From a virus (Duplodnaviria > Caudoviricetes): a DNA stretch of 64,000 nucleotides. This document shows, piece after piece, positions 19,549 to 57,200 of this stretch. A program made the position numbers and the translations under genes. The notes beneath the pieces are model-generated. The model was given only the letters and a program-made list of their open reading frames with translations. It was not told where the DNA came from and made no database searches. The DNA lies in the IMG/VR virus record IMGVR_UViG_3300028888_000057; one strand, written 5' to 3'. Numbering within the stretch: the first letter of the stretch is position 1; each line of letters starts with the position of its first letter.

Positions 19549-19552
19549 GTAA

Positions 19553-26904: not shown

Positions 26905-26960
26905 GGCCCGCAAGCGGGCCTGCAAATACATCTGCGAAAGGAAAACCATCTCCTTTCAAG
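26905..26960 (+). repeat. CGCAAGCG hairpin element with a conserved downstream stem (copy 1)
   Basis: Full-length relative at 28739-28795; hairpin-only copies at 27005-27020 and 45792-45803. Confidence 0.65.
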
Positions 26961-27077
26961 GTTTCTCATTAATCAATTTTCCTACTGTTCGCACACGATC
27001 CACCGGATCGCAAGCGATCCTGCTAAGTACCCTTATGGGAAAATCCCGTATTACATAATTAAATATTTTAGGAGGTA

Positions 27078-27771: not shown

Positions 27772-28209
27772 ATGTTTAACGTTGATATCTACACAGACGG
27801 AGCGTGCTCCGGGAATCCCGGCCCTGGCGGATACGGTGCGATTATTACCTGCAAAGGGCAGGAAAAGATTGTCCGTGGTTTCGTTGAAAATTCTACCAAC
27901 TGCAGAATGGAACTGATTGCCATTATTGAAGCAATCAAAGTTCTGAACAAACCATGTCAGATTCAGGTCTACACAGACGCAAAGTACGTCGTTGACGGTG
28001 TGACCAACTGCAAGAAATGGCTGGCCAAGAAAGATCTTGCCAATCGTGACTTGTGGATGGAACTCATCACAGTAGGCAACGAAGGCAAGCACAAGATGAA
28101 ATTCATTAAAGTCAAAGGTCATTCCGGAGATGTGATGAATGAACGCTGTGACAAAATTGCCAAAGAACAGATTCGTAAATACTGGCATGAAAGGACTGGA
28201 ATGGAATGA
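27772..28209 (+). CDS. rnhA: Ribonuclease HI
   Basis: YTDGACSGNPGPGG, TN.RMEL, TD.KYV, N.DLW, VKGHSG..NERCD. Confidence 0.95.
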   Translation: MFNVDIYTDGACSGNPGPGGYGAIITCKGQEKIVRGFVENSTNCRMELIAIIEAIKVLNKPCQIQVYTDAKYVVDGVTNCKKWLAKKDLANRDLWMELITVGNEGKHKMKFIKVKGHSGDVMNERCDKIAKEQIRKYWHERTGME

Positions 28210-28286
28210 AAAAGCAGGTGGCTATCTATCTTTTCGCATTTCTGGTTCCAACGGTTTTATCTCTGATTTTTGTGAGGTGAATAAAT

Positions 28287-28484
28287 ATGCATGAGTATCA
28301 ATGTATTGATACCGAGTATGGAGTGAAAGGATTCATGCCCAGCGGGGAACAGCGTGAGTTTGCAACAGAGTCGGAATATCGGGATGCATATACCGATGAG
28401 GAAAACGAAATCTACGATGAGATGTACAGACTGAACAATGGTTTTCAGTATGAAATCGAAGAAGATTTCGTGCTTGGCGCATGA
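28287..28484 (+). CDS. Small acidic hypothetical protein
   Basis: GAGGTG RBS. Confidence 0.6.
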   Translation: MHEYQCIDTEYGVKGFMPSGEQREFATESEYRDAYTDEENEIYDEMYRLNNGFQYEIEEDFVLGA

Positions 28485-28732
28485 TCCTGTTATTTACATC
28501 TGTCGCAATGATTGCTATCTCGTTCTGGGCCGGAATGAAGACAGCAGACAGATACCATCGAGAGGCCATGCAGCATGAAGAATATTCCCTGAGATTAGCC
28601 CATGCAAGAATAGAATCAGGAAGTTATCCATCATATGTTGCACCAATTCAACCCATCGGTCAACCATTTATGGACAGACTGAAATCCCAAGGGAAAGCTA
28701 CCCAACAAATTCGAAAATCCAAACAAGCATGA
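28481..28732 (+). CDS. Small membrane-anchored protein
   Basis: N-terminal hydrophobic segment; ATGA overlap. Confidence 0.55.
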   Translation: MILLFTSVAMIAISFWAGMKTADRYHREAMQHEEYSLRLAHARIESGSYPSYVAPIQPIGQPFMDRLKSQGKATQQIRKSKQA

Positions 28733-28930
28733 TTCCCCGGGGCGCAAGCGCCCCTACAGGAATACATCTGTGAAGGGTAAACCAATTCCCTTCAAATCCC
28801 CATCATGTGGCGTCCGATACCCACAATAAATACCGCCGTCGGATAGGACTGTCTCCCGAAAGAGCTGGGCAGATTGCAATGCAGAAATTGCTGAACCCAT
28901 CGATTAAATTTTATTGATTAACGGAGGATT

Positions 28931-29338
28931 TTGAAAATGACTAACTTCCTTGCTTCTGGACATATTGTCCGTAATGCTGCTACCCGTACCGTGACCGTTG
29001 GCAACGTGCCGACTCTGGTGACCGACTTCACCGTGGCCGTCAATGACGGATATGATCCCAAGACCAATCAGCCCCGGTATACCAACTACTGGCGCGTGAG
29101 CCTGTGGCGTGAGACCGGCGCAAAGCTGGCTCCGCATCTGGTTCAGGGTCGTGCTGTGAACATCACCGGTATCCCGACTGCCCGTGCGTGGCTGGATCAG
29201 AACGGCAAGCCTCAGGCTCAGCTTGAGGTGAAGGAAGCCCGTGTCGAGCTGATCGGCAAGAAGCCGGGTGATGACATTCCTGAGGAGCCGATTCCTGCGG
29301 ATGTTATCCCGGAAGAGGAACTGCCTTTCAATCAGTAA
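28931..29338 (+). CDS. ssb: Single-stranded DNA-binding protein 1
   Basis: OB-fold pattern (G.I, FTVAVN, V.LW, G..V.I.G) and acidic tail EEELPF. Confidence 0.88.
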   Translation: MKMTNFLASGHIVRNAATRTVTVGNVPTLVTDFTVAVNDGYDPKTNQPRYTNYWRVSLWRETGAKLAPHLVQGRAVNITGIPTARAWLDQNGKPQAQLEVKEARVELIGKKPGDDIPEEPIPADVIPEEELPFNQ

Positions 29339-29348
29339 TTGAAACCAT

Positions 29349-29388
29349 AGGGGGAATCAGAGCGATGGGGCTCTGGTTCCCCTTTTTT
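29349..29388 (+). terminator. Intrinsic terminator after ssb
   Basis: GGGGAATCAGAGC/GCTCTGGTTCCCC stem plus T-run. Confidence 0.75.
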
Positions 29389-29422
29389 CGACTTCTCCAT
29401 GTTGCATGTTCGATTGCGTTGC

Positions 29423-29464
29423 TTCGGTACCTAACTTTGAAGCCATGGAAGTGTGACATAAAGG
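29423..29464 (+). promoter_or_regulatory. Putative phage promoter with upstream palindrome
   Basis: TTCGGTACCTAA then TTGAAGCCATG..CATAAAGG. Confidence 0.55.
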
Positions 29465-29643
29465 AGAGAGACTAAAAGTTTTTTCTTTTTTTCTTTCCAG
29501 AATATTTTATTTCTTCGTATCTTACGAGAGATTTTTAATCACGAAGGCGTGTCTTGATGAGGGGATGACTATTTGTCCATCTGAAAACGACAGCGGCCTA
29601 TTTGATTATTTTTTCTCGGTAAATACGTTGAAAGAAGGAAAGG

Positions 29644-29913
29644 GTGATATTTTTGGAAACTTGTTTTAACTACTGTGATCCAAAGACTGCATTCTTCAGC
29701 TCGGACGAACGAAAGTGGATCAATAAAATTCACAAGCTGAAAGAAAAGTACCCTTACGAGATCACGATCATTGCTGAGCCAAAGGATAACGACGGGTGTA
29801 TCTATTGCAGACTTCCGGTTGCGTGGCTCAGAGTCCAGCCCAAGATCAAGCGAGAGATGTCCGAAGAACAAAAGGCGGCTTTTGTAGAGCGAATGGGCAA
29901 TCTTCATAAATAA
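29644..29913 (+). CDS. Hypothetical phage protein
   Basis: 89-aa ORF with purine-rich RBS. Confidence 0.65.
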   Translation: MIFLETCFNYCDPKTAFFSSDERKWINKIHKLKEKYPYEITIIAEPKDNDGCIYCRLPVAWLRVQPKIKREMSEEQKAAFVERMGNLHK

Positions 29914-30085
29914 CGAGAGATTTTTAGTCAAATTCGTTTTGTTTGTGGCAGGATGAGAATTTCTCCACCTAAATATTCAAACAAGCTAATTGGTTTCAAT
30001 TTCATCGTATATTACGAGGGTTCTGAACAAACGTGACTGAATATTACTCTGCAGATTGCAGAATGACTGTCGTATGGCAAATTAG

Positions 30086-30128
30086 TTCGGTACCGAAATT
30101 TGAAGCCATGCGAAACGAGCCATAAAGG
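30086..30128 (+). promoter_or_regulatory. Putative phage promoter for the tRNA cluster, with upstream palindrome
   Basis: TTCGGTACCGAA then TTGAAGCCATGCGAAACGAGCCATAAAGG. Confidence 0.6.
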
Positions 30129-30180
30129 AAGAGGATGTATGAAAGGTGGGTTCGCTCCCCGCTGATCCTTCTTCCAGGCT

Positions 30181-30229
30181 GTCGGTGTGCGCTATACGCT
30201 TAATCGCAAACCAGCCTTTTGCGGCCGAC
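30181..30229 (+). ncRNA. Structured RNA motif with CCAGCC loop, copy 1
   Basis: Second copy at 31303-31353 with compensatory stem changes. Confidence 0.55.
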
Positions 30230-30345
30230 AGTAATTTAATAAACAGGCTGCTTATCCCGTACCGATGCAAAGAAGAAGAGCAGCCGCTTACCCGATGCTT
30301 ATACAGAATGATATTAGCTAACTGGGTATAGTGTCGGGTTTGTAT

Positions 30346-30420
30346 GGGGCATTAACGCAACGGTAGCGTATCTGCTTTGCAAGCAGAAGGTTGCAGGTTC
30401 AAGTCCTGTATGCTCCACCA
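30346..30420 (+). tRNA. tRNA-Ala(TGC)
   Basis: Cloverleaf, TCTGC-TTTGCAA-GCAGA, G3.U70 pair, CCA end. Confidence 0.9.
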
Positions 30421-30517
30421 CGACTGAGGGCGACGTTAGGGCGGTCGTAAAATAAAACTCTGAACAAGTCACTGTCAAAAGCCGGCAAATGTTTGACATA
30501 CTTGACGTCGTATCTAT

Positions 30518-30588
30518 CGAAGGTGTGGTGTAACGGTAACACGCGTCACCAGGAATGACGAGTCGCAGTTCGAATCTGACATCTTCGA
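30518..30588 (+). tRNA. Atypical or pseudo tRNA-Pro(AGG)
   Basis: Acceptor, D and anticodon stems intact; loop CCAGGAA has C33; T-stem imperfect; no CCA. Confidence 0.5.
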
Positions 30589-30721
30589 CGTGTCGCGACT
30601 GATGTGTGGAGTTTTGATTTCTTTCGGCCATACAGAGAATGACAATCCAATGAAAGAAATAGCGGCATGGTGACAGCCGGTTGAAAAAGAAGGGCTCGCT
30701 ACCCAGTCACCTTATCATTAT

Positions 30722-30808
30722 GGCTCGTTGGCGCAAATGGAAGATTCGCAAGTGATTTAAAATCACTCGGGGCATATCCCCATATCGGTTCGAGTCCGAT
30801 ACGAGCCA
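30722..30808 (+). tRNA. tRNA-Leu(TAA)
   Basis: AGTGA-TTTAAAA-TCACT, long variable arm, GTTCGAG T-loop. Confidence 0.85.
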
Positions 30809-30878
30809 CTGCTTCCTTTATGGAAGCCCAACACCTCCTTTCATCATAAGGCCGCATGTCAAAGTGCGGCCGACTTAT

Positions 30879-30972
30879 CTCAGCTTAGTGTAACGGAGAG
30901 CACGACGGTCAACTGCATGCCACAGTAAACACTGTGTGACTGGATGAGACAGTTCGAATCTGTCAGCTGGGA
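30879..30972 (+). ncRNA. tRNA-like RNA with an insertion in the anticodon loop
   Basis: Acceptor CTCAGCT/AGCTGGG, D arm and perfect T arm; the anticodon stem encloses about 25 nt including the hairpin CACAGT/ACTGTG. Confidence 0.6.
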
Positions 30973-31018
30973 CTTGCCCATTTTCTGAATAGTGGGCATT
31001 CATTAACTAACTCTCCTT

Positions 31019-31105
31019 GACGGTGTCTGTTTCTCAGCAAAGTCACATCGAAAGATGAAGCACTACTGGACTTAATCAGCCGTTCGATTCGGCTGGCCGT
31101 CACCA
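31019..31105 (+). ncRNA. tRNA-like RNA with acceptor stem, T arm and ACCA end but no D stem or canonical anticodon arm
   Basis: GACGGT/GCCGTC-ACCA; AGCCG-TTCGATT-CGGCT. Confidence 0.55.
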
Positions 31106-31106
31106 A

Positions 31107-31181
31107 TGGGGATTCGTATATTGGCTATTACGCTCGGCTTTGACCCGAGAAAGGGCGGATCGTAACCGTCATCCCCAGCCA
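31107..31181 (+). tRNA. tRNA-Gln(TTG)
   Basis: TGGGGAT/ATCCCCA-GCCA; CTCGG-CTTTGAC-CCGAG; variant T-loop. Confidence 0.85.
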
Positions 31182-31302
31182 TATTACGACAGGACTTCTT
31201 TAAACACGAATAAAAATAATATTTTTAATCCGTGCCTGTAAGAATCAAAAAAACACCCTGTCGTAAAAAAATCCACTCGGGGAAATCGACAAATCCGAGT
31301 GA

Positions 31303-31353
31303 GTTCGGTGTACGCTATATACTCAATTGAGAACCAGCCTTTCTCAGCCGGAC
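31303..31353 (+). ncRNA. Structured RNA motif with CCAGCC loop, copy 2
   Basis: Covaries with copy 1. Confidence 0.55.
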
Positions 31354-31444
31354 AATTTATATAATCGCTTCGTGGCCGCACAATCATTCTTATAGGCCGT
31401 CAGAATCAATTTGCTGCTGTCGCCCTTCGTGCGAAGCAGTTCTA

Positions 31445-32082
31445 CGCGTATTATATATATTAACCATATTAAGTATCTCTTAGTATACCTAAGGTATAAC
31501 GTTATTAGTAACATATACGTATCGTTACTTAGATTGTTTTATTATTATTTATTATTATAGGCTTATTTGGTTATATTTTCTTTTGGGAGAAAATATAACC
31601 AATAAGCCATTATATATATTATTAATATTACTATCCTTCTATAAAATCTACATAAAGCATTTAACTCTACGAAGCTATATTATTCTCTTAAAGAGATTAC
31701 TTACTTAAATTAAGAGAATCTTAAAGAGAATAAATAACGTAACAGTCTAATACAAGTAACGTATTTATAATCAAGTAATGAAGAATGAATGATATTCTCT
31801 TAATTAATAAATAAAAAACATTCTCTCTTAGAATAGTAATAATATACGTAACACTATATTCAATAAACTTATATCTTATTACTAACGGACTATAACTAAT
31901 TATTTAGATATATATGTCTTAGGATAATATAATGCAGTATTAAATAAGATTATAGACTTTATACTTTGCAAGTATAAAGGATATAAGATTATTTAATACG
32001 GTTATAGATATTTTTATTTCTTTATTATAATAATATATATAATAATATTAAAGAAAGAATATTATTCTTTTAGATAATAATA
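31445..32082. other. Extremely AT-rich non-coding tract 1
   Basis: No ORF in the track; very few G/C; low complexity. Confidence 0.85.
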
Positions 32083-32116
32083 CTAAGGCGGTCTCAGCCG
32101 CCGGAAAGGAGTATCA

Positions 32117-32467
32117 ATGACGGATCTTGAAAAACACCTGCTTGCTGACTTAACCTGCCAAGGAAAAGACTGTGATGACTGCTTCAGAGAATTCAACACC
32201 ACAAGATGCCCAGCCGTCAATAGAGTCCAGCTCGACAATGAAGGACTGAATAAAGACTCTATAATGTATAAATATGCAGAAGTATTAGACGGCTGCTTAG
32301 ACGTTAACGGCGCCTGCGGAAGTTGCAAAGCAATAGAACGAGTTGATGAATGTCCAAGACGCAAATACAGAGAGTTAGCACGGGCTGAATACGAACAATC
32401 CGGCTTTAATACTCTGTATATCAATCTTATAAACGATAACGACCTATATGACATTCTAGGAGAATAA
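32117..32467 (+). CDS. Cys-rich small protein (paralogue family A)
   Basis: C..C..C / CP pattern occurs twice; AAAGGAG RBS. Confidence 0.75.
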   Translation: MTDLEKHLLADLTCQGKDCDDCFREFNTTRCPAVNRVQLDNEGLNKDSIMYKYAEVLDGCLDVNGACGSCKAIERVDECPRRKYRELARAEYEQSGFNTLYINLINDNDLYDILGE

Positions 32468-32469
32468 CA

Positions 32470-32841
32470 ATGACTGATATATTTTATAACCTCGCTGATG
32501 CTATGTCCGGCTGTAATACACGTCTCTGTGATGACTGCTATAAGCATTTTGGTTTAGATCACGTGTGTCCAACAGACAAGTATTATGAAAAAGCAAAAAG
32601 AGAATATACAAACAGAACTAATGACTGGATTGAATTTAAGGATAATTATCCAGTTGCGGCTATGTACTTGCACGGTAAATTCTATTGCACTGGCCATACC
32701 TGTGTGATTTGTAGACGACTGGCCGGTATAGATAACTTAGGACCATGTCCTGGCATGCTAGAAAAAGAAACTCAGCAAGAATTAAAGATTAAAACTTATA
32801 ATATATCAGTGACTGACTTAGAGAATATCCTAGGAGAATAA
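32470..32841 (+). CDS. Cys-rich small protein (family A)
   Basis: Close paralogue of the ORF at 32844. Confidence 0.8.
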   Translation: MTDIFYNLADAMSGCNTRLCDDCYKHFGLDHVCPTDKYYEKAKREYTNRTNDWIEFKDNYPVAAMYLHGKFYCTGHTCVICRRLAGIDNLGPCPGMLEKETQQELKIKTYNISVTDLENILGE

Positions 32842-32843
32842 AA

Positions 32844-33206
32844 ATGATTGATATTTTATATAATTTCGCTGATGCATGTTCCGGCTGTGGTAGCCGCACA
32901 TGTCGCGACTGTTACAAGTATTTTCATACGAATGACGTATGTCCTATTGACAGTTATTATCATAAAGCAAAGAAAGAATATGAAAATCAGACAAGTAACT
33001 GGTATGAGTTCAAGAGAGAGTATCCAATCTCGGCTGCTTATGTACATGGCAAGCTTTACTGCACCGGCCATGACTGTACGAGCTGTAAAGCCTTGATTGG
33101 GACAGAATCTTGTCCGGCTGATATGGCTGCGGAAACACAGGAAGAATTAAAGATCATAGGTTATAAGATATCAGTGACTGATTTGGAGGAGATACTGTGC
33201 CAGTAA
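32844..33206 (+). CDS. Cys-rich small protein (family A)
   Basis: Close paralogue of the ORF at 32470. Confidence 0.8.
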   Translation: MIDILYNFADACSGCGSRTCRDCYKYFHTNDVCPIDSYYHKAKKEYENQTSNWYEFKREYPISAAYVHGKLYCTGHDCTSCKALIGTESCPADMAAETQEELKIIGYKISVTDLEEILCQ

Positions 33207-33430
33207 ATTTGAAGTTTCCAAATATAGATATGCCGGTCAAGCTTACTTATCCGGATAATATTTATTTTGCTCCTCAGCTTGGTAACACTGTTCATGTGAT
33301 TGATTCGGCTAGAAACCTTCTGGGTGATTATGTCGTGGCTGAGTTATCGAATGGCGGCTATACTCTACGGAAGGTCAGTGACTGCAAGGTGGATGAAAAA
33401 GAAATTTTAGAGATTCTGCAGGAGAATTAA
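33197..33430 (+). CDS. Small hypothetical protein
   Basis: Overlapping start; shared acidic C-terminal tail. Confidence 0.65.
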   Translation: MPVNLKFPNIDMPVKLTYPDNIYFAPQLGNTVHVIDSARNLLGDYVVAELSNGGYTLRKVSDCKVDEKEILEILQEN

Positions 33431-33960
33431 TATCTATATAATATATATTATTATAATAATAAGAAATAATATTATTAATAATCTATAATAATAAATAATC
33501 TGAATAAATATAATTAAATAAATTAAGATTATTATTCTTATTAATGAATATTATTACTCTTATAGATTATACATTATTTAGATATTACTCTCTTAAGATA
33601 ATTATATTCCTTTAAATTAATTATATTATCTTTAAGATGTATCTCTTTAAGATTATTAATATCTCTTAGAGATTATACTTTCTTTAGAGATTATTATCTT
33701 AAGGATAAATGAATCCTTTATAGGGATTATTCTTATTTAGAGATAGATACTATTAGAAGAGAATAATTCTTTAGATTAAAACTACACATCTTTTTACTAA
33801 TTCTTAATATATTTTTACTACACACATATTCTTTAGATATTATACACATTACTATTTATATTAATAATACTAACCATATTAATAACAATATCTCTAAAAG
33901 ATAATATAATCCTTTATTAATATAATATAAAGAATAATATTTATAATATAAAGATAAATA
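33431..33960. other. Extremely AT-rich non-coding tract 2
   Basis: Repeated AGATTAT-like words; very few G/C. Confidence 0.85.
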
Positions 33961-34008
33961 CTACACTTTGATAACTGGCGGGGAGAGAACTGGCCGGGGA
34001 GAATTGAA

Positions 34009-34362
34009 ATGATTAAACAGTACGCCGAGAATATGATTGAAAATTGCGAAGGATGCTCTAAATGTAAGTATAAAGGCAATTGTTTTGTTAGAGCAAATAG
34101 AGAACAGGTAGCAAAAGAAGTAAAAGAGAATTCTGAAGAATGGCAGGAATTCCTTGAAGAAATGCCGGCCGTGGCTATATACGCTGGATCACACGCTATT
34201 TGCAATTGGTTCAGCTGTGAACAGTGCAAAAGCTTCTTCAAATGGGACAAAATTCGTGGGTTTCCTTGCGACAAAACCACTGAAGTAATTGAACAATGGG
34301 ATAATAACAAGGTAAAAATTGATTCTGAAGAACTCTTGGATCTTTTAGGAGACAAAATATGA
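34009..34362 (+). CDS. Cys-rich small protein (family A)
   Basis: W.EF....P..A.Y.G...C...C..C shared with 32470 and 32844. Confidence 0.75.
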   Translation: MIKQYAENMIENCEGCSKCKYKGNCFVRANREQVAKEVKENSEEWQEFLEEMPAVAIYAGSHAICNWFSCEQCKSFFKWDKIRGFPCDKTTEVIEQWDNNKVKIDSEELLDLLGDKI

Positions 34363-34628
34363 ATATAGGCGATAAGGTATTAGTGACTGGCCCGGAAGGT
34401 TGGACAGGCGAAAGACAAGAGTATTACATTAACAACAACGAGTACACAGTGGCTCCTAGTATGTATCAATATAAAGGCAAAGAAACAACAATCTGTGCAA
34501 AGTATCATCGTAAACCTGACACTTGGCTACTTCATGGCATACCGGGTTTTTATTGGCACGAATCATGGTTGCAGCCGGTAGAAACAATTCAACTGTCAGA
34601 TGAAATCTTCGATATTCTGGAGGAGTAA
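34359..34628 (+). CDS. Small SH3/KOW-like protein (family B)
   Basis: IGDKV.V.GPEGW...YWHESWL.PV. Confidence 0.7.
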   Translation: MNIGDKVLVTGPEGWTGERQEYYINNNEYTVAPSMYQYKGKETTICAKYHRKPDTWLLHGIPGFYWHESWLQPVETIQLSDEIFDILEE

Positions 34629-34629
34629 T

Positions 34630-34896
34630 ATGCTTGAGAAAGGAACTCCGGTTGTGATTGTCGGCCCTGAGGGTTGGGACGGGCAAGACCGTGATTATGA
34701 AATCAATGGTGAAATATATCACATCAACAATATCATGAAAGATTATCTTGGTCAGAAAACACGTATTCTTGCTGGAAATGATCAGCTGGATGATTGGTAT
34801 AGCGTTGAGTCTAATTACTGGTGGTGGCATGAAAATTGGTTAAAGTACGATAAGATAAATATCGATGATAATGAGTTAGAAGAGATGCTCTTGTGA
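34630..34896 (+). CDS. Small SH3/KOW-like protein (family B)
   Basis: GPEGWDG...WWHENWL. Confidence 0.7.
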   Translation: MLEKGTPVVIVGPEGWDGQDRDYEINGEIYHINNIMKDYLGQKTRILAGNDQLDDWYSVESNYWWWHENWLKYDKINIDDNELEEMLL

Positions 34897-35534
34897 AAAC
34901 TTTGTATTCTGTCTGGAATAACACACCGGATAACGATTCAATCATTGCGGCCGGATTAACAGTTGATGAATGTGCTAAACTTCTTGGAATCAAAAAGAAT
35001 ACTGTCTACGAACAAGTCAGCCGAAGAAAACATGGTAAGAATTGCAGTATTTTGATTATTTCAGAAATGGTAAAGGATGATGAGGAGGAGGATAACATGG
35101 TAGTAATTAAACCCGGAAATATTCTTGATGCTAAAGAGAACCTGATCTTTCAGCAGGTTAATTGCCAGAATGTAATGGGCTCAGGTTTGGCTAAGGCCAT
35201 CTATACCAAATGGCCTGTTGTGAAAGAAAAGTATCATAAATTTTGTGACGGAAAGAAACCTGAGGATCTTCTTGGACACTTTCAGACTGTACAGGTGACT
35301 GATAATCAGTATGTCGTTAATATCTTTGGTCAGCTGAGCTATGGCCGTGAAAGGATTCATTATACCGACTATAATGCTTTAGACAAAGCTTTTAAAGCAA
35401 TCTCCAGAACAAGAGGATCAATTGCTGTCCCATATGGTATGGGAGCAGGATTGGCTAATGGAGACTGGAGCACCGTCCTTCTTTTGATTAAGAAACATTT
35501 CTATGATCATAATGTGACAATTTATAAATTGTAA
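34893..35534 (+). CDS. Macro-domain (ADP-ribose hydrolase-like) protein with N-terminal HTH; strong internal start at 35097
   Basis: GNILD..IFQQVNC..MGSGLAKAI..P.GMGAGLANGDW. Confidence 0.85.
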   Translation: MKTLYSVWNNTPDNDSIIAAGLTVDECAKLLGIKKNTVYEQVSRRKHGKNCSILIISEMVKDDEEEDNMVVIKPGNILDAKENLIFQQVNCQNVMGSGLAKAIYTKWPVVKEKYHKFCDGKKPEDLLGHFQTVQVTDNQYVVNIFGQLSYGRERIHYTDYNALDKAFKAISRTRGSIAVPYGMGAGLANGDWSTVLLLIKKHFYDHNVTIYKL

Positions 35535-35574
35535 TGTTTTAGAGCGGATTGGATTTTTGATCCGAACCGCATAA

Positions 35575-35661
35575 GCGAGGGTGGCAGAGTTGGCTGATCG
35601 CTCCGGTCTTGAAAACCGGTGAGCCTACTGGGCTCCGAGGGTTCGAATCCCTCCTCTCGCG
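35575..35661 (+). tRNA. tRNA-Ser(TGA)
   Basis: CCGGT-CTTGAAA-ACCGG, long variable arm, GTTCGAATCC. Confidence 0.9.
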
Positions 35662-35668
35662 CTATTAT

Positions 35669-35745
35669 GCACCCTTAGCTAAGTTGGTCGTAGCTGCGGC
35701 CTTGTAAGCCGTGTAATCAGCTGGGTTCGAGTCCCAGAGGGTGTA
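35669..35745 (+). tRNA. tRNA-Thr(TGT)
   Basis: GCGGC-CTTGTAA-GCCGT; acceptor GCACCCT/AGGGTGT. Confidence 0.8.
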
Positions 35746-35831
35746 CAAACCGTCACATCCTTGCGGTATATAAATTTGGGTGTCGGCAAGCAGGGCCAAA
35801 CTGCTGCAGGTGTGGTAGTCAGGCACATCGA

Positions 35832-39587: not shown

Positions 39588-40037
39588 ATGGATCAGGAAG
39601 CCAAAGCTGATAATGGTAAAGCACGACTGACATTGGTTCCGAGAAAGATTCTTTATGACGTTGCAAGAATCAGAGAGTTCGGAACAAAGAAGTATAAAGA
39701 TCCTGATAACTGGAAAAAAGTAGAAGCTTGGAGATATAAGGACGCGCTGATGCGTCATCTCTGTGCCTATCTTGATGATCCGAAGAGTGTCGATGAAGAG
39801 AGCGGCTTGCCTCATTTGTGGCATGCGGCTTGTAATATGGCTTTCCTTTGTGAGATGGAAGACTGGGAAGAAAAGAAAGAAGAAGTTGTTGAAAAACCGA
39901 AGTGTAAAGATTGCAAGTATTGTTGCGAAGTGAATAGAGGAAATAAAGTTTATATTTGTAAAGAAGTAAGTAAATTTGGCAAGACAATCTTCAATATTGA
40001 AGCGCCGATTTGCGAAAAAGGAACAAGAAAAGAATAA
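39588..40037 (+). CDS. dATP/dGTP diphosphohydrolase-like protein (DUF5664) with C-terminal Zn finger
   Basis: KADNGK..L.LVP, FG.KKY..NW, ALMRH, DEESGLPHL.HAACN..FL. Confidence 0.8.
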   Translation: MDQEAKADNGKARLTLVPRKILYDVARIREFGTKKYKDPDNWKKVEAWRYKDALMRHLCAYLDDPKSVDEESGLPHLWHAACNMAFLCEMEDWEEKKEEVVEKPKCKDCKYCCEVNRGNKVYICKEVSKFGKTIFNIEAPICEKGTRKE

Positions 40038-40058
40038 GCCGGAAAGGAGGGAAAAATA

Positions 40059-40598
40059 ATGGCTTTAACAAAGATTGATCTGGAAACGATGGATAATCGT
40101 AACTTTCACTACAAGGCTCAATGGAAACCTGATGTGGAAGAGTACTACAAGAAAGCGGATGCCCAACTTGTAGCCGGAGAAATCTATTCACTGGGAGACA
40201 ACCCTTCGACGAAGGAAGTTCTCGAAATGGCCCGAAGTGAAGATAGAGAAATCCATAAGCTGATTGAGTGGGATGACAGTATCGCAGCCGAAAAGCATCG
40301 GATGTATCAGGTCAGAAAGATTATGGGTAATATCCAGATCACTGAGATCAAGCTGAAAAAAAAAGCGCCTCAGAAGATTAAGGTTCCGCTGAGAATGTTC
40401 TACCATCTGAAAGGCGAAGAAGGATATCACGCCACTCCGACTATCATCGAAAACAAAGACTTAAATGACAAACTTCTGGCAACAGCCAAGGCAGAACTGG
40501 CTGCGTTTGTCACTAAGTATTCGATCCTCACAGAGCTTCAGCCTGTTTTCGATGCCATCAGGAGCCTGGATAATCCGCCTGATAATCCGGCGGCCTAA
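40059..40598 (+). CDS. Conserved helical protein, candidate partner of the RAMP/periodic-RNA system
   Basis: EVLEMAR....IH.LIEWDDSIAAEKHR..Q.R motif; its stop is a few nt before RNA unit 1. Confidence 0.7.
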   Translation: MALTKIDLETMDNRNFHYKAQWKPDVEEYYKKADAQLVAGEIYSLGDNPSTKEVLEMARSEDREIHKLIEWDDSIAAEKHRMYQVRKIMGNIQITEIKLKKKAPQKIKVPLRMFYHLKGEEGYHATPTIIENKDLNDKLLATAKAELAAFVTKYSILTELQPVFDAIRSLDNPPDNPAA

Positions 40599-40604
40599 AT
40601 CAGA

Positions 40605-40719
40605 GTGCGGTTAGTACAATAAGGGACTTGTGAGTCCCTACAACAAGAGTACACATCATATTTCAACACATCATAATGCAGGACATCACATTACAAGTCT
40701 CTTGTTGTGCTAATCGCAC
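40605..40719 (+). ncRNA. Periodic guide-like RNA unit 1
   Basis: About 27-bp terminal stem GTGCGGTTAGTAC..CTTGT / ACAAG..GTGCTAATCGCAC with G.U pairs, enclosing AYA-NN pentamers. Confidence 0.8.
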
Positions 40720-40819
40720 AAAAACAGCTTACGATATTATATAAAAGCATTAATAATAACAGTTTATTAAACTTTAATATATCATAACATATCAAAACTC
40801 AAGACATTACAATATACAA

Positions 40820-40934
40820 CTTCGTTGACTCTCATAAGGGCATGTATTATGTCCTACTACAATATAGAGCAATATAGGAAAAACAAGGACAAAACAACAC
40901 AGTACAACACATGCTCTTATTAGAGTCAACGGAG
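40820..40934 (+). ncRNA. Periodic guide-like RNA unit 2
   Basis: Stem CGTTGACTCT..GGGCATGT / ACATGCTC..AGAGTCAACG; 12 in-phase pentamers. Confidence 0.75.
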
Positions 40935-41055
40935 CATTATTCAACAGTTCTGTTGACAATAACAGAACAAATCAATAAAACACTAAAAATTACACAATCA
41001 AACAGTAAAGAACATCATTTATTTTTTGAAAATTATTTTTAAAGGAGAAAATATT

Positions 41056-41724
41056 ATGAAGAAGAACAATAACGAATTTGAACTGCTGAATATCGACGCC
41101 AAGGTTAAACATATGGAAGTCTACATTGAAGGAGACGGAGATCTCGTTCTGAACAAGATGAACGCCCGTACTTTCCGTGAACTGATGAATCCAGATCGTA
41201 AAGCAGCGAAAGAACAGCCGAACGTATGGGAAGACATCATCACTTCCATCCATTGGCGTGATCCTCTGGGAGTAAAGGACACTTATCAGTGTTGTGATGA
41301 AAACTTTATGAATAAGCTCCTGAAGGAAAATGCTCCGTGTATTACCCAGTTCGGTCTCATGCAGAGTCTGAAGCAGGCCGTTGTACGCAATGAGATCGAT
41401 ACCTATAGCACCAAGTTTGACAATGCGGTGAATATCATCGCGGTTAATGGACTTATTCCGGTCGAAATCAGCGGCTGGTCTTTGGACAGTCGTCTGATGA
41501 GTCCGAAGCGTGGAGCCCCGATTTCCGTGCATATCAACCATTTCCATAACTGGAAAGCACATTTTCATGTAGCTTATATGGATAACGTGTACAGTCGGGA
41601 TCAGATTCTGAACGTGATTAACCTGGCTGGATTTGGTCTGGGCATTGGCTCCGGCCGGACTTCTGGTTATGGTCGTTATCATATCACGGCTGTTGAATCC
41701 TATACGGATACTGAAGCCGCTTAA
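41056..41724 (+). CDS. Stand-alone Cas7/RAMP-superfamily RNA-binding protein
   Basis: N-terminal strand V.IEG.GDL, central helix GLMQSLKQA, and C-terminal Gly-rich loop AGFGLGIGSGRTSGYGRY typical of RAMPs; AAGGAG RBS. Confidence 0.8.
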   Translation: MKKNNNEFELLNIDAKVKHMEVYIEGDGDLVLNKMNARTFRELMNPDRKAAKEQPNVWEDIITSIHWRDPLGVKDTYQCCDENFMNKLLKENAPCITQFGLMQSLKQAVVRNEIDTYSTKFDNAVNIIAVNGLIPVEISGWSLDSRLMSPKRGAPISVHINHFHNWKAHFHVAYMDNVYSRDQILNVINLAGFGLGIGSGRTSGYGRYHITAVESYTDTEAA

Positions 41725-41742
41725 TTCTCTGTGTACCAATCC

Positions 41743-41864
41743 GATGTGGTTGGTACCATAGAGAGCTTGTAAGCTCTTAGATCAAGATAGAGTAAATTAG
41801 AGCACGATAGAATAGGACATAAAAGAACAGCACATAACAAGCTTTCTATGGTGCTAATCACATC
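41743..41864 (+). ncRNA. Periodic guide-like RNA unit 3
   Basis: Stem GATGTGGTTGGTACCATAGAGAGCTTGT / ACAAGCTTTCTATGGTGCTAATCACATC; 13 pentamers. Confidence 0.8.
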
Positions 41865-41873
41865 AACATATCA

Positions 41874-41982
41874 GTGCGGTTGGCATTGTTGGAGACTTGT
41901 TCTCCGTAATACAAAACTCTGTATAACAGAAGAATCAACAACAGAACAGCACAGTACAAGTCTTCAATAGTGCCAACGGCAC
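41874..41982 (+). ncRNA. Periodic guide-like RNA unit 4
   Basis: Stem GTGCGGTTGGCATTGTTGGAGACTTGT / ACAAGTCTTCAATAGTGCCAACGGCAC; 11 pentamers. Confidence 0.8.
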
Positions 41983-42064
41983 AAGCACACTATAAGTAAG
42001 CATAATACAGGACAGCGAAACTACAGAACAATGCAGGAGTTTACAAAACAGAAAGTGCCAACGT

Positions 42065-42188
42065 TGCAGTTGGCACGTTAGAGAGCTTGTTTGGCTCTTA
42101 ATGCAAAATAGCTTAGAGCAGAATAAGGTACGATACTACAAAATAGATAACGACACAACAGAACAAGCTTTCTAATGTGCTAATTGCA
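42065..42188 (+). ncRNA. Periodic guide-like RNA unit 5
   Basis: Stem TGCAGTTGGCACGTTAGAGAGCTTGT / ACAAGCTTTCTAATGTGCTAATTGCA; 14 pentamers. Confidence 0.8.
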
Positions 42189-42264
42189 CAAAATACAGAA
42201 CATCAAACTAAAGGACAAAAGAAAACAGATAAGTACAGCACAGCATAATATTTCTGGAGGAAAT

Positions 42265-42555
42265 ATGTTTAAAGTTGGAGATATTGTTCAGCTTAAAACA
42301 CAGTCAGAACTTAATGCTGAACACATAAGATGTGATACAGGTTCAGCTTCGCATAAGTACGGTGGATCCATTTGTGAAATTATAGAGATAAAAGGCAATG
42401 GTTATAAATTAAGTCCAATAGAAAACGTTGACAATTGCCCCGATAGAGAAGTTCACGATATTTCATATTGGTACTGGTCAAATAAGAACTTGAAACCATA
42501 CAATACTATTAAAGTTAATGAAATGGAAATGTTGACAATATTATCGGAGGCATAA
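42265..42555 (+). CDS. Small SH3/KOW-like protein (family B)
   Basis: FKVGDIVQLKT..GSA.HKYGGSIC..W.W. Confidence 0.75.
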   Translation: MFKVGDIVQLKTQSELNAEHIRCDTGSASHKYGGSICEIIEIKGNGYKLSPIENVDNCPDREVHDISYWYWSNKNLKPYNTIKVNEMEMLTILSEA

Positions 42556-42839
42556 TGTTTAATCCGGGAGACTTAGTTCAGATTAAAACAAGAGAAGAAG
42601 TATTAGAAGAAGGACGGCTGTGTTCCAAAGGTAGCGCGCTTCATAAATATGGCGGATCAATATGTAAGGTTAGAGATGGAGAAATATTTTATCGACTAGA
42701 AAGTGTTGATGTTGTTGATAATTTACCAGATATACATCTCTCAACTATAGAAGATTGGGACTGGAGCAATCGCAACCTGAAACTGGCTTATAATCCCGAA
42801 ATAAACACTAATGAGCTCATGAATTTACTGGAGGCATAA
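42555..42839 (+). CDS. Small SH3/KOW-like protein (family B)
   Basis: Tandem paralogue (GSALHKYGGS). Confidence 0.75.
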   Translation: MFNPGDLVQIKTREEVLEEGRLCSKGSALHKYGGSICKVRDGEIFYRLESVDVVDNLPDIHLSTIEDWDWSNRNLKLAYNPEINTNELMNLLEA

Positions 42840-43135
42840 TGGAATACAAAGTTGGTGAACTTGTTCAGATTAAAACAAGAGACGAAATGATAGCTGAAGG
42901 ATATTTTTGTAGCGAAGGAAGCGCATTACATAAATATGGAGGATCCACTTGCAGAGTTCAGCGTATCGACGGTATGGTTTGCACACTTAACCCTGTTAAC
43001 ATTATAGATAACTTGCCTCATCAATACGAAAAGCCGATTGAAAAATGGAAATGGCATAGTTCAAGTCTTAAATATCCGGAAAACGAAATAAAGATTGATA
43101 TAGATACAATGGTTGATATTTTATCGGAGGCATAA
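42839..43135 (+). CDS. Small SH3/KOW-like protein (family B)
   Basis: Tandem paralogue (GSALHKYGGS). Confidence 0.75.
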   Translation: MEYKVGELVQIKTRDEMIAEGYFCSEGSALHKYGGSTCRVQRIDGMVCTLNPVNIIDNLPHQYEKPIEKWKWHSSSLKYPENEIKIDIDTMVDILSEA

Positions 43136-43419
43136 TGAAATACGCAATTGGAGACAAAGTAGAAGTAATCGGCCCACCAAATTGGGACGGTAAAGACGAT
43201 TATCGAATTTATTGTAATAATAATCGAGAAGATTACGCTTTTGGAATTCATATGAGAGATAGAATCGGATTTGTTAGCGAAATAGAATCTTTATATGCCT
43301 ATAAAGATAATTGTTATCATTTGCGTAATGATACAGATGCTTATTACTATCATGCAGATTGGCTGGCTCCTGTTGAAACAATTAATGTTGAAGGACTTGA
43401 AGATCTTTTGGAGGACTAA
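43135..43419 (+). CDS. Small SH3/KOW-like protein (family B)
   Basis: IGDKV.VIGP..WDG..YYH.DWL.PV. Confidence 0.75.
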   Translation: MKYAIGDKVEVIGPPNWDGKDDYRIYCNNNREDYAFGIHMRDRIGFVSEIESLYAYKDNCYHLRNDTDAYYYHADWLAPVETINVEGLEDLLED

Positions 43420-43649
43420 TGTTTTACGTAGGGGATCAGGTTAGGCTAGTTGGTTATCAAGATAACATCGACCTGATGGAGCAAAATCTTGGAAGGGTAT
43501 TCACAATCACAGACAAATACGAAAAGAATCGTGATAAGCCAGCATACTATCTGAATGATGGTTATAGATTTATTTATCGGGAAGATTGGCTTGAACCTGT
43601 TGAACAAACAATTAATACCGATGAATTAGAGGACTTGTTAGGAGAATAG
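43419..43649 (+). CDS. Small SH3/KOW-like protein (family B)
   Basis: VGDQV..EDWLEPV. Confidence 0.72.
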   Translation: MFYVGDQVRLVGYQDNIDLMEQNLGRVFTITDKYEKNRDKPAYYLNDGYRFIYREDWLEPVEQTINTDELEDLLGE

Positions 43650-43650
43650 T

Positions 43651-43932
43651 ATGTATAAAATTGGAGATGAAGTACTCCTCAAGAAACCTGATTGGTTTCC
43701 AGAAAATAAAGTATGTATAGAGCAAGGTACATCCGGAGAAGAAACTGTATGTTTTATTGATTTAATGCTTTATGCTGTAGGACAACAAACAAGAATTAAA
43801 CAAGTATATTTCGATAAAAAAGATTGTTACCTTCTTGAAAACATCGGTAACTATTGGCACGAAAACTGGCTGGAACCTGTTAATCAAGTTAATGTTGATG
43901 AAGATACATTAACAGAGCTACTTGAGGTGTAA
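43651..43932 (+). CDS. Small SH3/KOW-like protein (family B)
   Basis: IGDEV..YWHENWLEPV. Confidence 0.72.
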   Translation: MYKIGDEVLLKKPDWFPENKVCIEQGTSGEETVCFIDLMLYAVGQQTRIKQVYFDKKDCYLLENIGNYWHENWLEPVNQVNVDEDTLTELLEV

Positions 43933-52451: not shown

Positions 52452-52732
52452 TTATCATAATGAAAACGTAGAAATACTCTTTAGATGTTATTTAAAGGAA
52501 CGATTGGCTGGATGAGTAGGTCGCTGCGGGCAGGTCCTGAAGGCGCCCAGTGGAGTGTCGATCCGCTGGCAGAGAGGCTGGACGGAGGTGGCAGGTCAGC
52601 GCGATCCGACTGAAAACCGGGAAAGTGGAGATTCAAATCCGGAGAAGACGACCAATTGGATCTCGAACGCGTCCAGCGGGCCCTGGAGGAGCACCTCGTG
52701 CGGCAGCGGATTTTCCTTTTAGATTATGATAA
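52452..52732 (+). ncRNA. Retron-like msr/msd RNA, upstream copy
   Basis: Inverted repeat TTATCATAAT/ATTATGATAA, G at 52462 directly after the stem, GC-rich nested stems. Confidence 0.7.
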
Positions 52733-52742
52733 GGATAATAAT

Positions 52743-53867
52743 ATGATTTACATAACAAGAAAAAGAATTGCAATACCCAAACAAGTGACTTTGGAAGACA
52801 TCTTGTTGGACCGAGAAATTCCGGAGTTAAAAGATATAGGAACAAGCACACTGACAAGAGTTTATCCTGAAACTCCAGATGAGCTTAAACATTGTTTCAA
52901 TATTGATTTATTAATCAAATGGTTGAATGACTTCAATGAACGACATGCTGAGCTATTCCAAAGAGATAGAAACAGTATGTATTATCAGTTCAAAATACCA
53001 AAGAAAACAGGAGGATTCAGAGAAATTGATGCTCCTGTCAAAGAGTTGCAGAGCGCGCTAACAGAAGTGGTTAATTTTCTAAAGAATCAATGCAATATTC
53101 TGTATCATACGGCGGCATTTGCCTATATCGAAGAGAGAAGCACGGTAGATTGTGTCAGAAGACATCAGAAAAACAATAGCAATTGGTTCCTGAAACTGGA
53201 TATTAAGAGCTTCTTTCCAAGCACTACGCTGAAGTATCTGATGCACATCAGCAGCATGACGTATCCACTGTCGGAAATCTGCAAGGTTCCAGAGGGAAAG
53301 TCAGCGTTGGAGAGGACATTCAGTCTTGCTTTTAAAGATGGCAAATTGCCACAGGGAACAACATTAAGTCCGTTGATTTCGAACATTGTAATGTTGCCAA
53401 TAGACTTTAAGGTCTTCAATACATTGGCAGCAAGAAAGATTGTATATACTCGTTACTGCGATGATATGATTATCTCGGCTCAGGAGAAGTTTCCGTGGCA
53501 GGAAGTTGTAAAGATTGTCAAAGATGCTTTTACAGAAATGGGAGCACCATATCGGATCAATGACGAAAAGACAAGGTTTGGATCAAAGAAAGGAAGTAAC
53601 TTTAATCTCGGATTAATGCTGAATGGAAACAATGATATCACTGTAGGTTATAAGGCGAAGAAACGCTATAAAGCTGCGCTGTGTTCATTTATCCAGGATA
53701 CAATCCATGGAAATCGTTGGCCGCTGGAAGATGTAACGCATCTGAACGGGCTGACAAGTTACTATCGCTATCTGGAGAAAGAATATTTTGATCAGATATG
53801 GAAAAGAGCAAGCGAAAAGTGGAACGTAGATATTGGTGCTTTGTTTAAATCATATCTATCAACGTAA
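52743..53867 (+). CDS. Retron-like reverse transcriptase (374 aa)
   Basis: IPKKTGG.R.I.AP, AFAY, LKLDIKSFFPS, LPQG..LSP, YTRYCDD, NLGL; no maturase or endonuclease domain. Confidence 0.9.
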   Translation: MIYITRKRIAIPKQVTLEDILLDREIPELKDIGTSTLTRVYPETPDELKHCFNIDLLIKWLNDFNERHAELFQRDRNSMYYQFKIPKKTGGFREIDAPVKELQSALTEVVNFLKNQCNILYHTAAFAYIEERSTVDCVRRHQKNNSNWFLKLDIKSFFPSTTLKYLMHISSMTYPLSEICKVPEGKSALERTFSLAFKDGKLPQGTTLSPLISNIVMLPIDFKVFNTLAARKIVYTRYCDDMIISAQEKFPWQEVVKIVKDAFTEMGAPYRINDEKTRFGSKKGSNFNLGLMLNGNNDITVGYKAKKRYKAALCSFIQDTIHGNRWPLEDVTHLNGLTSYYRYLEKEYFDQIWKRASEKWNVDIGALFKSYLST

Positions 53868-54226: not shown

Positions 54227-57200
54227 GTGTCTTCGGTGAAGACATACCTGCAAGATCAGGTAAGGTTGGTAACGCTGAGCAGTAACGATTTATTTACAGA
54301 TGATGAATATAGTCAATATGTAAAGATCGTGCAGCTAGGCAACACGTACAACGAAAGGATCGGAAAAGGAGAAGACAAGGATACTCTGAAGCCAATTCTC
54401 CGGGAAAAAGAAAAGCTCAAAGAAAAATTGTCAACAACTATTCAGAAAAGAGGGGAGAATCCTCGGGTTGTTAATCTGAACATGGTTGTTCATCATTCCA
54501 AAGACTCTCCATTTCCATTTCCGAAAGGTATTACGTGGAAAAATCTCAAAATCACACGCAGGATTGCAGAATTTTCATGTGAACTGACAAGAGCAATGGG
54601 TCTCAATAATCTGGACTGTACGCTTGATCTGATCGTGATTAAATGGAAAGACTTGAATCTTCTGAAGCAGCTGGTACTGTATGGATTCTATATGCCGATT
54701 CTCCATGGAGACGAAGTTGAAATGAGACACTATCAGTTTCTGACTGCATCAGCCGGACAGTTGAGACGCGACAAAACAATCTTCATTTCGGATGAGATGT
54801 GGAACAAGATTCACAGACGCATCGAGTGTGGAATGAACTGGGAAAGAATCAATGTTCATGGAGGTATCGTCGCAAATAAACTGCTGGCTTATATTGCGTT
54901 GGCTAACAGTGCTACGGATGTCTGGACGGACTTTGATATTGACCGGTGTATTGTCATAGACGATTTCGAGGCTGAAGTAACTGATCGAATGATGTATATT
55001 AAGGAAGATTATACATATGAGATCGGTAAACGAACGGTAATGATCAACCACACTGATGGATGTGGAATGATGCTGCCAACAGTCTCGAAACTGAATTTTA
55101 TGACAAGACTGCCATTCATCAAAGGATTGCTTGTGAGCTTTGATTATATTAAATTCTGCAAAGTCAATAATGTTCCTCCGATTATCAAGGATATTTATGG
55201 CAAAGAACATGACCTGATTAAAGAAAATATACAGATAATCTTTACGAAGAGTATGTTCAAAGCCTATAAGTATTTTGAAAGCTTCGAAGAGTACAAAGCA
55301 GAATTTAAAGCATGTGGCGCACAGGCCGGAATTACCAATTATGAAGAAGAGTATATTCCGGATGCGACATTGAATTATCAATTCATTCAAACACTAGTAA
55401 ATTTTACTGATGAGGAGATACAACAATTCATCAAAAATGATCATGATAAGATTGAAAAGCTTGGAACCAACAAAGATTCAATGTTGAACACGTTGGGAGC
55501 CAGAAAGGAATCTGACAATCCTTATAAAGCGGCGCTGGCATACTATCCGGAACTGTTGAGAGAAGCGTATAGCAAAGAAACGATTCGAGCGATCAGGAAG
55601 AGTATGATGCTGGATGCAAAGTCTGGAAAGATTCACTGCGAAAACAAGAGATTGTTTGCAGTACCTGATCTCTACGCCGCCTGTGAGCGGTGGTTTATGG
55701 GGATCGAAGAACCAGAAGGATTGTTAAGGGGAAATGAAATAGCTTGTCTGCCGTATAGAAGGCATGATAAAGCAGATGTTCTAAGAAGTCCGCATTAACA
55801 TAGGTGCCTTTACACAGTAATGTGTATCGAAAAATGTGGTTAACCTGTAAATACAGGGTGTCGCTGAAAAGCGGCTAACGGAGAACGAACTAAACGATAG
55901 AGTTTGGAGGTGAGAAAATGAGCAAGCTTAAAGATTTAACTGGACGGATGTTTGGATTTCTTTACGTTCAAAGAAGAATGCCTAATTATGTTCAAGAAAA
56001 CGGAAGAACAAGAACGAGATGGCTAACAACGTGTCTCTTGTGTGGAAAAGCTTATGTTGCAGATGGTAGTCATTTGCTGCACGGTGATATTATTAGTTGT
56101 GGCTGTTTTAAGAACATGAAAAGCGCATTAAGAGGTCAAGAATATACAGGCGTCCAGAAACCAATTCGAGATTTGACCGGCATGAAATTTGGATATCTTA
56201 GAGTAATTGAAAGATGCGAAAATTTTGGGCCAAAAACAGCATGGTTATGTTTGTGTGAGAATTGTGGCAGTTATACAAAGGTTCGCTCGAATCATCTCCT
56301 TCGAGGATTAGTATCCAGTGATGGCTGTATAAAGTCTGTAAGAGAAGAGCAAATGGCAAAATGGTTTAATGAACACAAAATTCCATTTGAAAGAGAATAT
56401 ACTTTTCCAGACTTATTAGGCGAAGGTGGAAGTAATCTAAGATTCGATTTTGGTTTAATAGACAAGAAAAATAATTTAATTTGTTTAGTTGAATATCAAG
56501 GAGAACAACATGGTTTAGATAAAACTGGAGAGTTTGGCAGACAACAAAGAGAACAAACTGACAAACAAAAAATTGATTATTGTTTAATAAACCATCTTGC
56601 TTTTCAAAGTGTTTGGTACAATAGAGATTTTGAAGAGCAAATGCAAGAAATCGAAAAGTTCTATCGCAAGTCAACTGCCGTGCCAAACCGGAAAACCGGA
56701 AGGTGTATCGACTATCCCGAGAGGGAGTAGGGTTCAAGTGAAACTCTTGAATTCGAAACGCCACACAACCCGTAAGGGCTGATGACATAGTCAACTCCGC
56801 TACGAAATATCGGGAAACCGACGGTACGAAGGTTAGCAATGGAACATTTTATCTGCCCAATTGTTCATGATCAGAAAATATATGATTGGTTTTATACAAA
56901 CGGAGTCGTAACTTCTTGTCACAGCATGGTATCGAGGGTGCTCCAGTTCGATGTCGATGGAGATCAACTTAACGTAATTGTTGATCCGTTATTCATTAAG
57001 GTTGCTGAAAAGAATATCAAAGAGTTTGACGTGGTTCCATTATTCTATGACGCAGAGAAAGGTGATGCTACTCTGATGTCAAAGGAGGCACAGTTTGAAG
57101 GTCTGAAGATTGCCCATGAATATTCAGGTATCGGAGAAATATCAAACATGCTGACAAGACTATGGAATCGAAATACTCAGGACAGGATTGCTGCCGCATT

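Follow-up and report, generated by a model that had tools for sequence, protein, structure and literature searches.

What does a single Cas7-like protein do in a phage genome, in the middle of arrays of short RNA repeats? We studied this question at positions 40059-42264 of IMGVR_UViG_3300028888_000057, an IMG/VR virus record (Duplodnaviria; Caudoviricetes) of 64,000 nucleotides (nt), called here the window. Portal, terminase and primase genes and eight tRNAs mark the window as phage DNA. A first-pass annotation of its letters had proposed a candidate non-CRISPR RNA-guided system, with a lone RAMP protein and stem-closed RNA units as guides. We consider it very probable that the locus is a VIPR system of a large clade of gut and rumen phages, and that its gapped pairing of RNA with DNA, which skips the wobble base, silences the DNA polymerase gene of competing phages along with other genes of theirs. 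VIPR was described in 2026. It combines the Vipr protein with guide RNAs (vrRNAs) made of GGY/NN pentamers, a DNA code that skips one nucleotide (1-nt-skip, xNN) and vap partners, and it comprises seven types (10.64898/2026.04.26.720920). Because of this publication, a non-CRISPR RNA-guided system is not a new category, and the locus represents a variant of a published kind. The proposal of stem-closed guides needs one adjustment: the single tract of the array with a demonstrable target has no stem.

The 222-amino-acid (aa) protein encoded at the locus is a Vipr-family RAMP with a Cas7-type fold. With Pfam, it gives a RAMPs match below the threshold (E 0.0046). A profile of 64 family sequences matches one solved protein, PDB 36pp_D, the "SUSP1 Vipr protein" (E 1.2e-13). 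Likewise, hhalign against the SUSP1 open reading frame (ORF) at 28474-29061 gives a probability of 98.3%. The AlphaFold2 model has a pLDDT of 92.6. Foldseek ranks Cmr4, Csm3 and type VII Cas7 highest for it (probability 1.0). The profile, hhalign, the model and the Foldseek matches together identify the protein as Vipr, which agrees with the Cas7-like RAMP of the earlier annotation. Its family is very large, with more than 2,270 clusters at 90% identity; ENA, Logan and JGI are the only sources of the 120 clusters listed. Among 1.8 billion representatives, a further search found 143 more distant relatives. No significant match was obtained by tblastn with the protein as query against 50,697 phage records.

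As in the Cas7 backbone of class 1 CRISPR-Cas (Csm3, Cmr4, type VII Cas7), the protein has an RRM/RAMP fold and a G-rich loop. By analogy, one subunit may occupy each fixed step of the guide. Unlike in class 1 Cas7, the guide has gaps, and its step is 5 nt instead of 6 nt. The repeat-spacer array and the multi-subunit cas operon that define class 1 systems are both missing from the locus, which has only one RAMP gene. The 64-kb window contains no CRISPR-like tandem array (50-80-nt period), as had been claimed. The parallel claim about cas genes holds for the neighbouring and large ORFs, the ones screened, where none was seen beside vipr.

Non-coding stretches lie on both sides of the vipr gene (40599-41055 and 41725-42264) and carry the array (Table 1). 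The five inverted-repeat units of the first-pass annotation are real: they measure ~115 nt, and their arms (27-30 nt) are 83-86% complementary. Their loops are in-phase pentamers, A-[C/U]-A-NN, with A at positions 1 and 3 and almost never at position 2, followed by a variable dinucleotide (NN). A recount of the triplets ending in A gives the same values as before, 13/13 in unit 3, 14/14 in unit 5 and 12/12 in unit 2. The array does not end with these units, since further tracts are found between them (s1, s2, s4a with s4b, and s5). There are ~10 tracts in all, on the vipr strand, and about half of them are inside ~28-bp stems. The expected genome-wide period-5 signal depends on the statistic. 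Plain Fourier power of A has no peak at the locus, since two of the five phases are taken by A. We substituted a phase-by-base chi-square, computed in 60-nt windows over the 64 kb, and 8 of the 18 top-0.5% windows are inside 40631-42256.

A predicted target was found for the open tract s5. The NN strings were written as NNxNNx patterns and scanned against IMG/VR. The pattern of the first nine NN of s5 is present in 92 stretches, compared with 0, 1, 1, 1 and 3 for five other guides. With all 12 NN, s5 matches at 24/24 in 7 contigs, at 23/24 in 5 and at 22/24 in 11. About 89 of the 92 stretches share the context NPNSVxQMKxWL...[IM][DE]SLGKK[DE]VA, and s5 spells its motif codon by codon (I/M-D/E-SLGKK-D/E-VAA-I/M). 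The matches are in frame and in sense, in ORFs whose median length is 668 codons from stop to stop. These ORFs encode a family-A DNA polymerase (PF00476 DNA_pol_A, E 2e-23). The NN string of s5 is, then, codon positions 1 and 2 of a conserved PolA motif in other phages. At the target loci, 24/24 is obtained only with skip 1. Skips 0, 2 and 3 give 17-18, and shuffled guides together with these skips cover 17-20 of 24. The polymerase motif is absent from the 64-kb window, and the window guides have no self-targets within it at any skip. Among named sequences, those closest to the target polymerase (66-73% identity) come from "Ca. Heliusvirales" phages of Oscillospiraceae, Acutalibacteraceae and Ruminococcus, and two of them match s5 at 20/24.

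Guides of related loci point to the same gene. In relative L088, a sense guide in codon phase 0 matches a second PolA motif of the same rival gene at 16 loci. In L012, an antisense guide matches a third PolA motif (20/20) at 35 loci. For both, the skipped base is the wobble position. Another guide, at 2880-2929 in L002/L003 and stem-closed, spells Y-A-G-F-G-L-G-I. These are the G-loop codons of vipr, the most conserved part of the gene. Its match is 18/20 with the vipr of other family members and 16/20 with its own gene, which has Ser in place of the target's Ala. From the letters, it resembles an anti-VIPR guide in which the distinction of self from non-self is built in. It echoes anti-vipr guides that have been published (10.64898/2026.10.15.759431).

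The tracts of relatives also behave as guides should under the first-pass annotation, which had expected a conserved triplet and a varying NN. In 82 IMG/VR and ENA relatives, there are about 175 [A][C/T]A-NN tracts on the vipr strand and 1 on the other; none of these relatives has GGY tracts. Their de novo logo is A.75, C.67/T.29 and A.98, with flat NN. The order of the locus (partner gene, AYA-NN array, vipr) recurs in more than 100 related phage loci. The closest comparison is with L084, whose Vipr is 96% identical and which has the same downstream array, including an identical s5. Between the two, substitutions affect 11% of NN, 15% of the Y position (mostly C/T), 1.7% of the third A and 2.4% of the stems. 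Unit 3 has differences at 10 of its 26 NN positions and at none of its 13 third-position A. The Vipr homology, the variation of NN and the 1-nt-skip match of s5 thus support the earlier suspicion of an A-rich VIPR variant that works on a 5-nt RNA step, with the triplet held and NN displayed. Metagenome-assembled genome (MAG) bins with this Vipr family belong to Ruminococcus, Oscillospiraceae, Lachnospiraceae, Blautia and other Clostridia. These hosts overlap those of the named phages whose polymerases come closest to the target.

How the system might act can be proposed from the VIPR of SUSP1 (10.64898/2026.04.26.720920, 10.64898/2026.04.26.720927), from which we infer array transcription, vrRNA cutting, assembly and target silencing by analogy. 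The array would be transcribed with the operon and cut into vrRNAs of roughly 60-125 nt. One Vipr protomer would bind each pentamer, burying A-Y-A and displaying NN. The NN of the filament would then pair with the target DNA, and every third (wobble) base would be skipped. Because the wobble base would be skipped, synonymous mutations would give no escape. Transcription of the rival's polymerase gene would be blocked, and the phage of the window would be favoured in co-infected or lysogenic cells.

The same ribonucleoprotein could instead target RNA, that is, the mRNAs of rivals, as type III CRISPR backbones do. The nearest solved folds are the RNA-targeting Csm3 and Cmr4, the SUSP1 VIPR can pair with single-stranded RNA in vitro (10.64898/2026.04.26.720927), and the L012 guide, antisense to PolA, could pair with PolA mRNA. 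However, the s5 and L088 guides have the same sense as the mRNA and could pair only with the template DNA strand. Since sense-strand guides cannot pair with mRNA, they argue for DNA targeting, and targets on both strands are a prediction of DNA recognition. We regard RNA targeting as highly improbable. A different account makes the tracts decoy or sponge RNAs. For example, their many ACA could bait MazF-type toxins, which cut at ACA, or they could be anti-VIPR decoys and titrate the Vipr of a rival. ACA and UACA are very frequent in the RNA. Moreover, satellites are reported to redirect phage VIPR by solo vrRNAs (10.64898/2026.10.15.759431). But a sponge needs no strict 5-nt phasing, no hypervariable NN and no 24/24 codon-register match to a rival gene, and the tracts are always syntenic with a vipr on the same strand. 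Decoys have scarcely any probability in our view.

The long stems raise a separate question about the five units. Folded as + strand RNA, the units reach -43 to -50 kcal/mol (z -7.7 to -10 against shuffles), and an alignment of the five shows compensatory changes in 17/27 stem pairs. In the relatives, the flanks pair at -25 kcal/mol or better in 63/119 unique tracts, compared with 1/119 mismatched flank pairs. The stems have a mean of 28.6 bp and 13% G.U pairs, and 58/66 are more stable on the + strand. This stability indicates RNA that is read from the vipr strand, with the motif AYA and not TRT. The RNA structure on the + strand proposed from the window alone is also present in the relatives. 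The stems may serve as processing or end-protection signals, and the enzyme that first comes to mind for a duplex of 28 bp is RNase III. If a filament filled a loop of 13 repeats, its length would exceed that of the stem joining its two ends. Mini-hairpins of 5-6 bp (-5 to -6 kcal/mol) are seen at 40624-40646, 41762-41784, 41889-41910 and 42083-42106, in units 1, 3, 4 and 5. They consist of the distal 5' arm and the bases after it, and they exclude the inner (loop-proximal) part of the long stem. In these four of the five units, the mini-hairpin form is 9-16 kcal/mol less favourable than the closed stem. It could act as a co-transcriptional or assembly switch.

According to a third alternative, the units are separate structured RNAs (processing stalks, small RNAs or terminator-like protective hairpins), only the open tracts are guides, and the periodicity of the loops reflects shared ancestry. 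It fits with a stem-less s5 as the sole window tract with a target, and with the competing mini-hairpin in four of five units. A closed 28-bp stem also seems geometrically awkward for a full filament on the loop. Nevertheless, unit 3 evolves as a guide would, its NN changing while the third A is fixed. In addition, stem-closed tracts of relatives do have targets, at 2880-2929 in L002 (flank duplex of -46.6 kcal/mol) and at 2716-2765 in L012 (-48.8). We find this alternative very unlikely, and we read the stem-closed units as probable VIPR guides too.

The choice of the triplet may depend on the G-loop. In the alignment, D177-W178-R179 of SUSP1 correspond to S199-G200-R201 here, and the loop after R is shorter here. 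In the SUSP1 G-loop, D177 and W178 read G1 and G2 (10.64898/2026.04.26.720927). Distant relatives with E-W or D-W G-loops exist. The de novo logos give GGT in SUSP1 (D-W) and GGC in L110 (E-W). The triplet [A/T][C/T]A is found with S-G in the window, S-H in L112, T-Q in L111, A-H in L115 and T-C in L116. So, the dipeptide tracks the triplet in the seven sampled systems, which agrees with the structural roles of both residues. The presence of S-G in place of D-W might underlie the switch from GG to A-Y. Extending this, the AYA-NN clade would be a second Vipr-RNA interface, naturally re-coded, in which the G-loop dipeptide sets the triplet. The stems would be a third maturation route (host RNase III) besides tails and hammerheads, with one guide per loop and per inter-stem spacer. 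This extension is tentative, and we judge it rather doubtful. If it is true, orthogonal Vipr/vrRNA pairs could coexist in one cell or be engineered.

Several results weigh against a VIPR that silences rival phages. One of about ten window tracts has a demonstrable target, and none of the five stem-closed window units has a known one. Exact-block scans of u1, u2, u3, u5 and s1 in IMG/VR gave 0-3 matches each, with no extension past the block, and we judge these to be at chance level. In a 0.7-Mb set of loci, 8 independent guides have a 7-NN match at skip 1, compared with 5.5 for shuffled guides, a difference that is not significant. NN fits codon positions 1 and 2 with r 0.88, and bulk dinucleotides with r 0.82; codon-like NN composition gives a hint but is weakly diagnostic. 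The partner protein has no recognisable fold, including DNA-binding or nuclease folds. Processing of the vrRNAs by RNase III is pure conjecture. Finally, the link between G-loop and triplet rests on seven systems that are not phylogenetically independent. We also rejected two metagenome matches of u3 (22 and 23 of 26). They are in contigs of 54-58% GC, and one is in a 17-codon frame.

Compared with known VIPR, the locus has a Vipr homologue, adjacent 5-nt arrays, a computational 1-nt-skip target match and a viral context without a CRISPR array. The nearest well-described system is the type II VIPR of the Escherichia phage SUSP1 (Vipr, vap1, four vrRNAs; PDB 36pp), a likewise minimal locus with a homologous Vipr. 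Each combines vipr with a single partner gene, and non-coding arrays flank vipr on either side. In both, the repeats are of 5 nt, with three fixed and two variable letters and 9-16 repeats per tract. The 1-nt-skip targeting in codon register, on either strand and in competing mobile elements, is also common to the two, as computed here. In contrast, the triplet is A-[C/U]-A and not G-G-Y, and the G-loop has S199-G200 and a shorter loop. The invariant 3' pseudoknot tail of type II, the clade of SUSP1 and P. fulva, is not found, and the tracts end in the 3' arm of the ~28-bp stem or in the next unit. The vap1 partner is absent; the partner here is unrelated to it. The hosts are gut Bacillota.

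Alternative VIPR repeats have been described as NNNGG, YNNNG and NNNNG (10.64898/2026.04.26.720920). Neither these nor GGY are the fixed triplet of the window locus, and we found no mention of an ACA or AYA triplet in the VIPR literature searched. The Evo-PIN/COMPASS survey reports 21 clusters with triplets such as GAC, CAC, WGT and TGH beside Vipr-like folds (bioRxiv 10.64898/2026.10.21.760802). With these non-GGY triplets, GGY no longer bounds the VIPR family. The arrays studied here resemble the ones it describes in their period of 5, their non-GGY fixed triplet and their Vipr-like neighbour. The profile here, NN/DCA (A, T or G; C; A), becomes TGH/NN when reverse-complemented. The clade may therefore already be among those clusters, on the other strand. 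The accessible account is at the level of cluster logos, without strand assignment, stems, targets or a comparison of G-loops. Likewise, the legends of fig. S18-S19 describe hammerhead-interspersed and staggered vrRNA arrays (10.64898/2026.04.26.720920), where, as here, head-to-tail guides need separation from one transcript. Unlike in those arrays, the Rfam scan gives no ribozyme, and long covarying duplexes flank alternate tracts instead.

These differences give the clade its interest. VIPR has been known only since 2026, and mechanistic work on it rests on GGY-type systems of Proteobacteria phages. The AYA-NN clade is very large, and all the matches listed are from gut and rumen Bacillota, in metagenomes or MAG bins. 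It keeps the 5-nt architecture and the 1-nt-skip code, and swaps the constant triplet and the reading residues. It is thus a natural experiment on RNA recognition by Vipr, and orthogonal programmable DNA binders might be drawn from it. The predicted natural target of s5 lies in the gene for the replicative DNA polymerase of rival phages, in a motif that is conserved and wobble-proof. With it, "inter-phage warfare" would reach beyond satellites and lysogeny regulators, to a core gene of replication and to the gut virome. What appears new, at the level of sequence, is the 24/24 PolA match of s5 under the 1-nt-skip rule and the predicted guides of relatives at other motifs of the same gene.

Table 1. 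Features of the vipr locus in the window.
Feature	Position	Strand	Evidence
Candidate vipr-accessory (vap-like) gene, 179 aa	40059-40598	+	Synteny with array and vipr in relatives
Unit 1, stem-closed vrRNA-like unit, pentamer tract 40638-40697	40605-40719	+	Inverted repeat, fold, phasing, covariation
Open tract s1, 19 pentamers, without closing stem	40724-40818	+	Pentamer phase
Unit 2, stem-closed, tract 40854-40913	40820-40934	+	Inverted repeat, fold, covariation
Open tract s2, 11 pentamers	40962-41016	+	Pentamer phase
vipr gene, 222-aa single-RRM RAMP, G-loop GFGLGIGSGRTSGYGRY	41056-41724	+	Profile, hhalign, AlphaFold2/Foldseek
Unit 3, stem-closed, tract 41777-41841, 13 pentamers	41743-41864	+	Inverted repeat, fold, covariation
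Unit 4, stem-closed, tract 41906-41960	41874-41982	+	Inverted repeat, fold, covariation
Open tracts s4a and s4b, 6 and 7 pentamers, phase shift between them	41987-42052	+	Pentamer layout
Unit 5, stem-closed, tract 42098-42167, 14 pentamers	42065-42188	+	Inverted repeat, fold, covariation
Open tract s5, 12 pentamers, NN = DNA polymerase A motif	42190-42249	+	IMG/VR pattern scan

The partner gene is a regular member of the locus. In 94 of about 101 related loci, the array and vipr are preceded by a gene for a homologue of its product, of 140-190 aa, and that of L006 is 62% identical to the protein of the window. Searches in Pfam, PDB sequences, Foldseek PDB, BFVD and VIA-wide gave no usable match; the sole BFVD match is an uncharacterised homologue from a gut phage. 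No relation to the vap1 of SUSP1, the only vap compared, was detectable.

Scanned against Rfam by E-value, the stretch 40000-42600 shows no credible ribozyme or other known RNA, and the only rows are chance ones for miRNA and snoRNA. Promoter and terminator scans of the locus score no better than shuffles. Directly upstream of the operon, at 39588-40037, a 149-aa protein has the N-terminal domain of a dATP/dGTP diphosphohydrolase (PF18909, E 1.4e-26; phrog_801). Because enzymes of the PF18909 type accompany base-modified phage genomes, the DNA of this phage may be modified. Right after the array, at 42265-43932, there are six tandem paralogous small genes of 76-98 aa. Their products all start with M-x-x-x-G-D-x-V, finish in an acidic tail (L-x-E-A/L-L-E) and match no family.

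Elsewhere in the window, a reverse transcriptase gene is present at 52656-53867 (RVT_1, E 8.9e-22; also phrog_2825 "polymerase"), which may be part of a diversity-generating retroelement. Three large proteins belong to phrog_8308 (54227-55798, 56839-58080 and 23135-26500), and one of them has a weak match to RdRP (RNA-dependent RNA polymerase; PF05183, E 7e-6). They may represent a phage two-barrel RNA polymerase split across several genes. The tRNA genes, at 16102-35746, are for Asn, Ala, Pro, Leu, Gln (two), Ser and Thr, as is typical of large lytic phages. After the tRNA block, non-coding AT-rich tandem repeats with periods of 10-39 cluster at 33423-33696, and this cluster may be an origin or packaging region.

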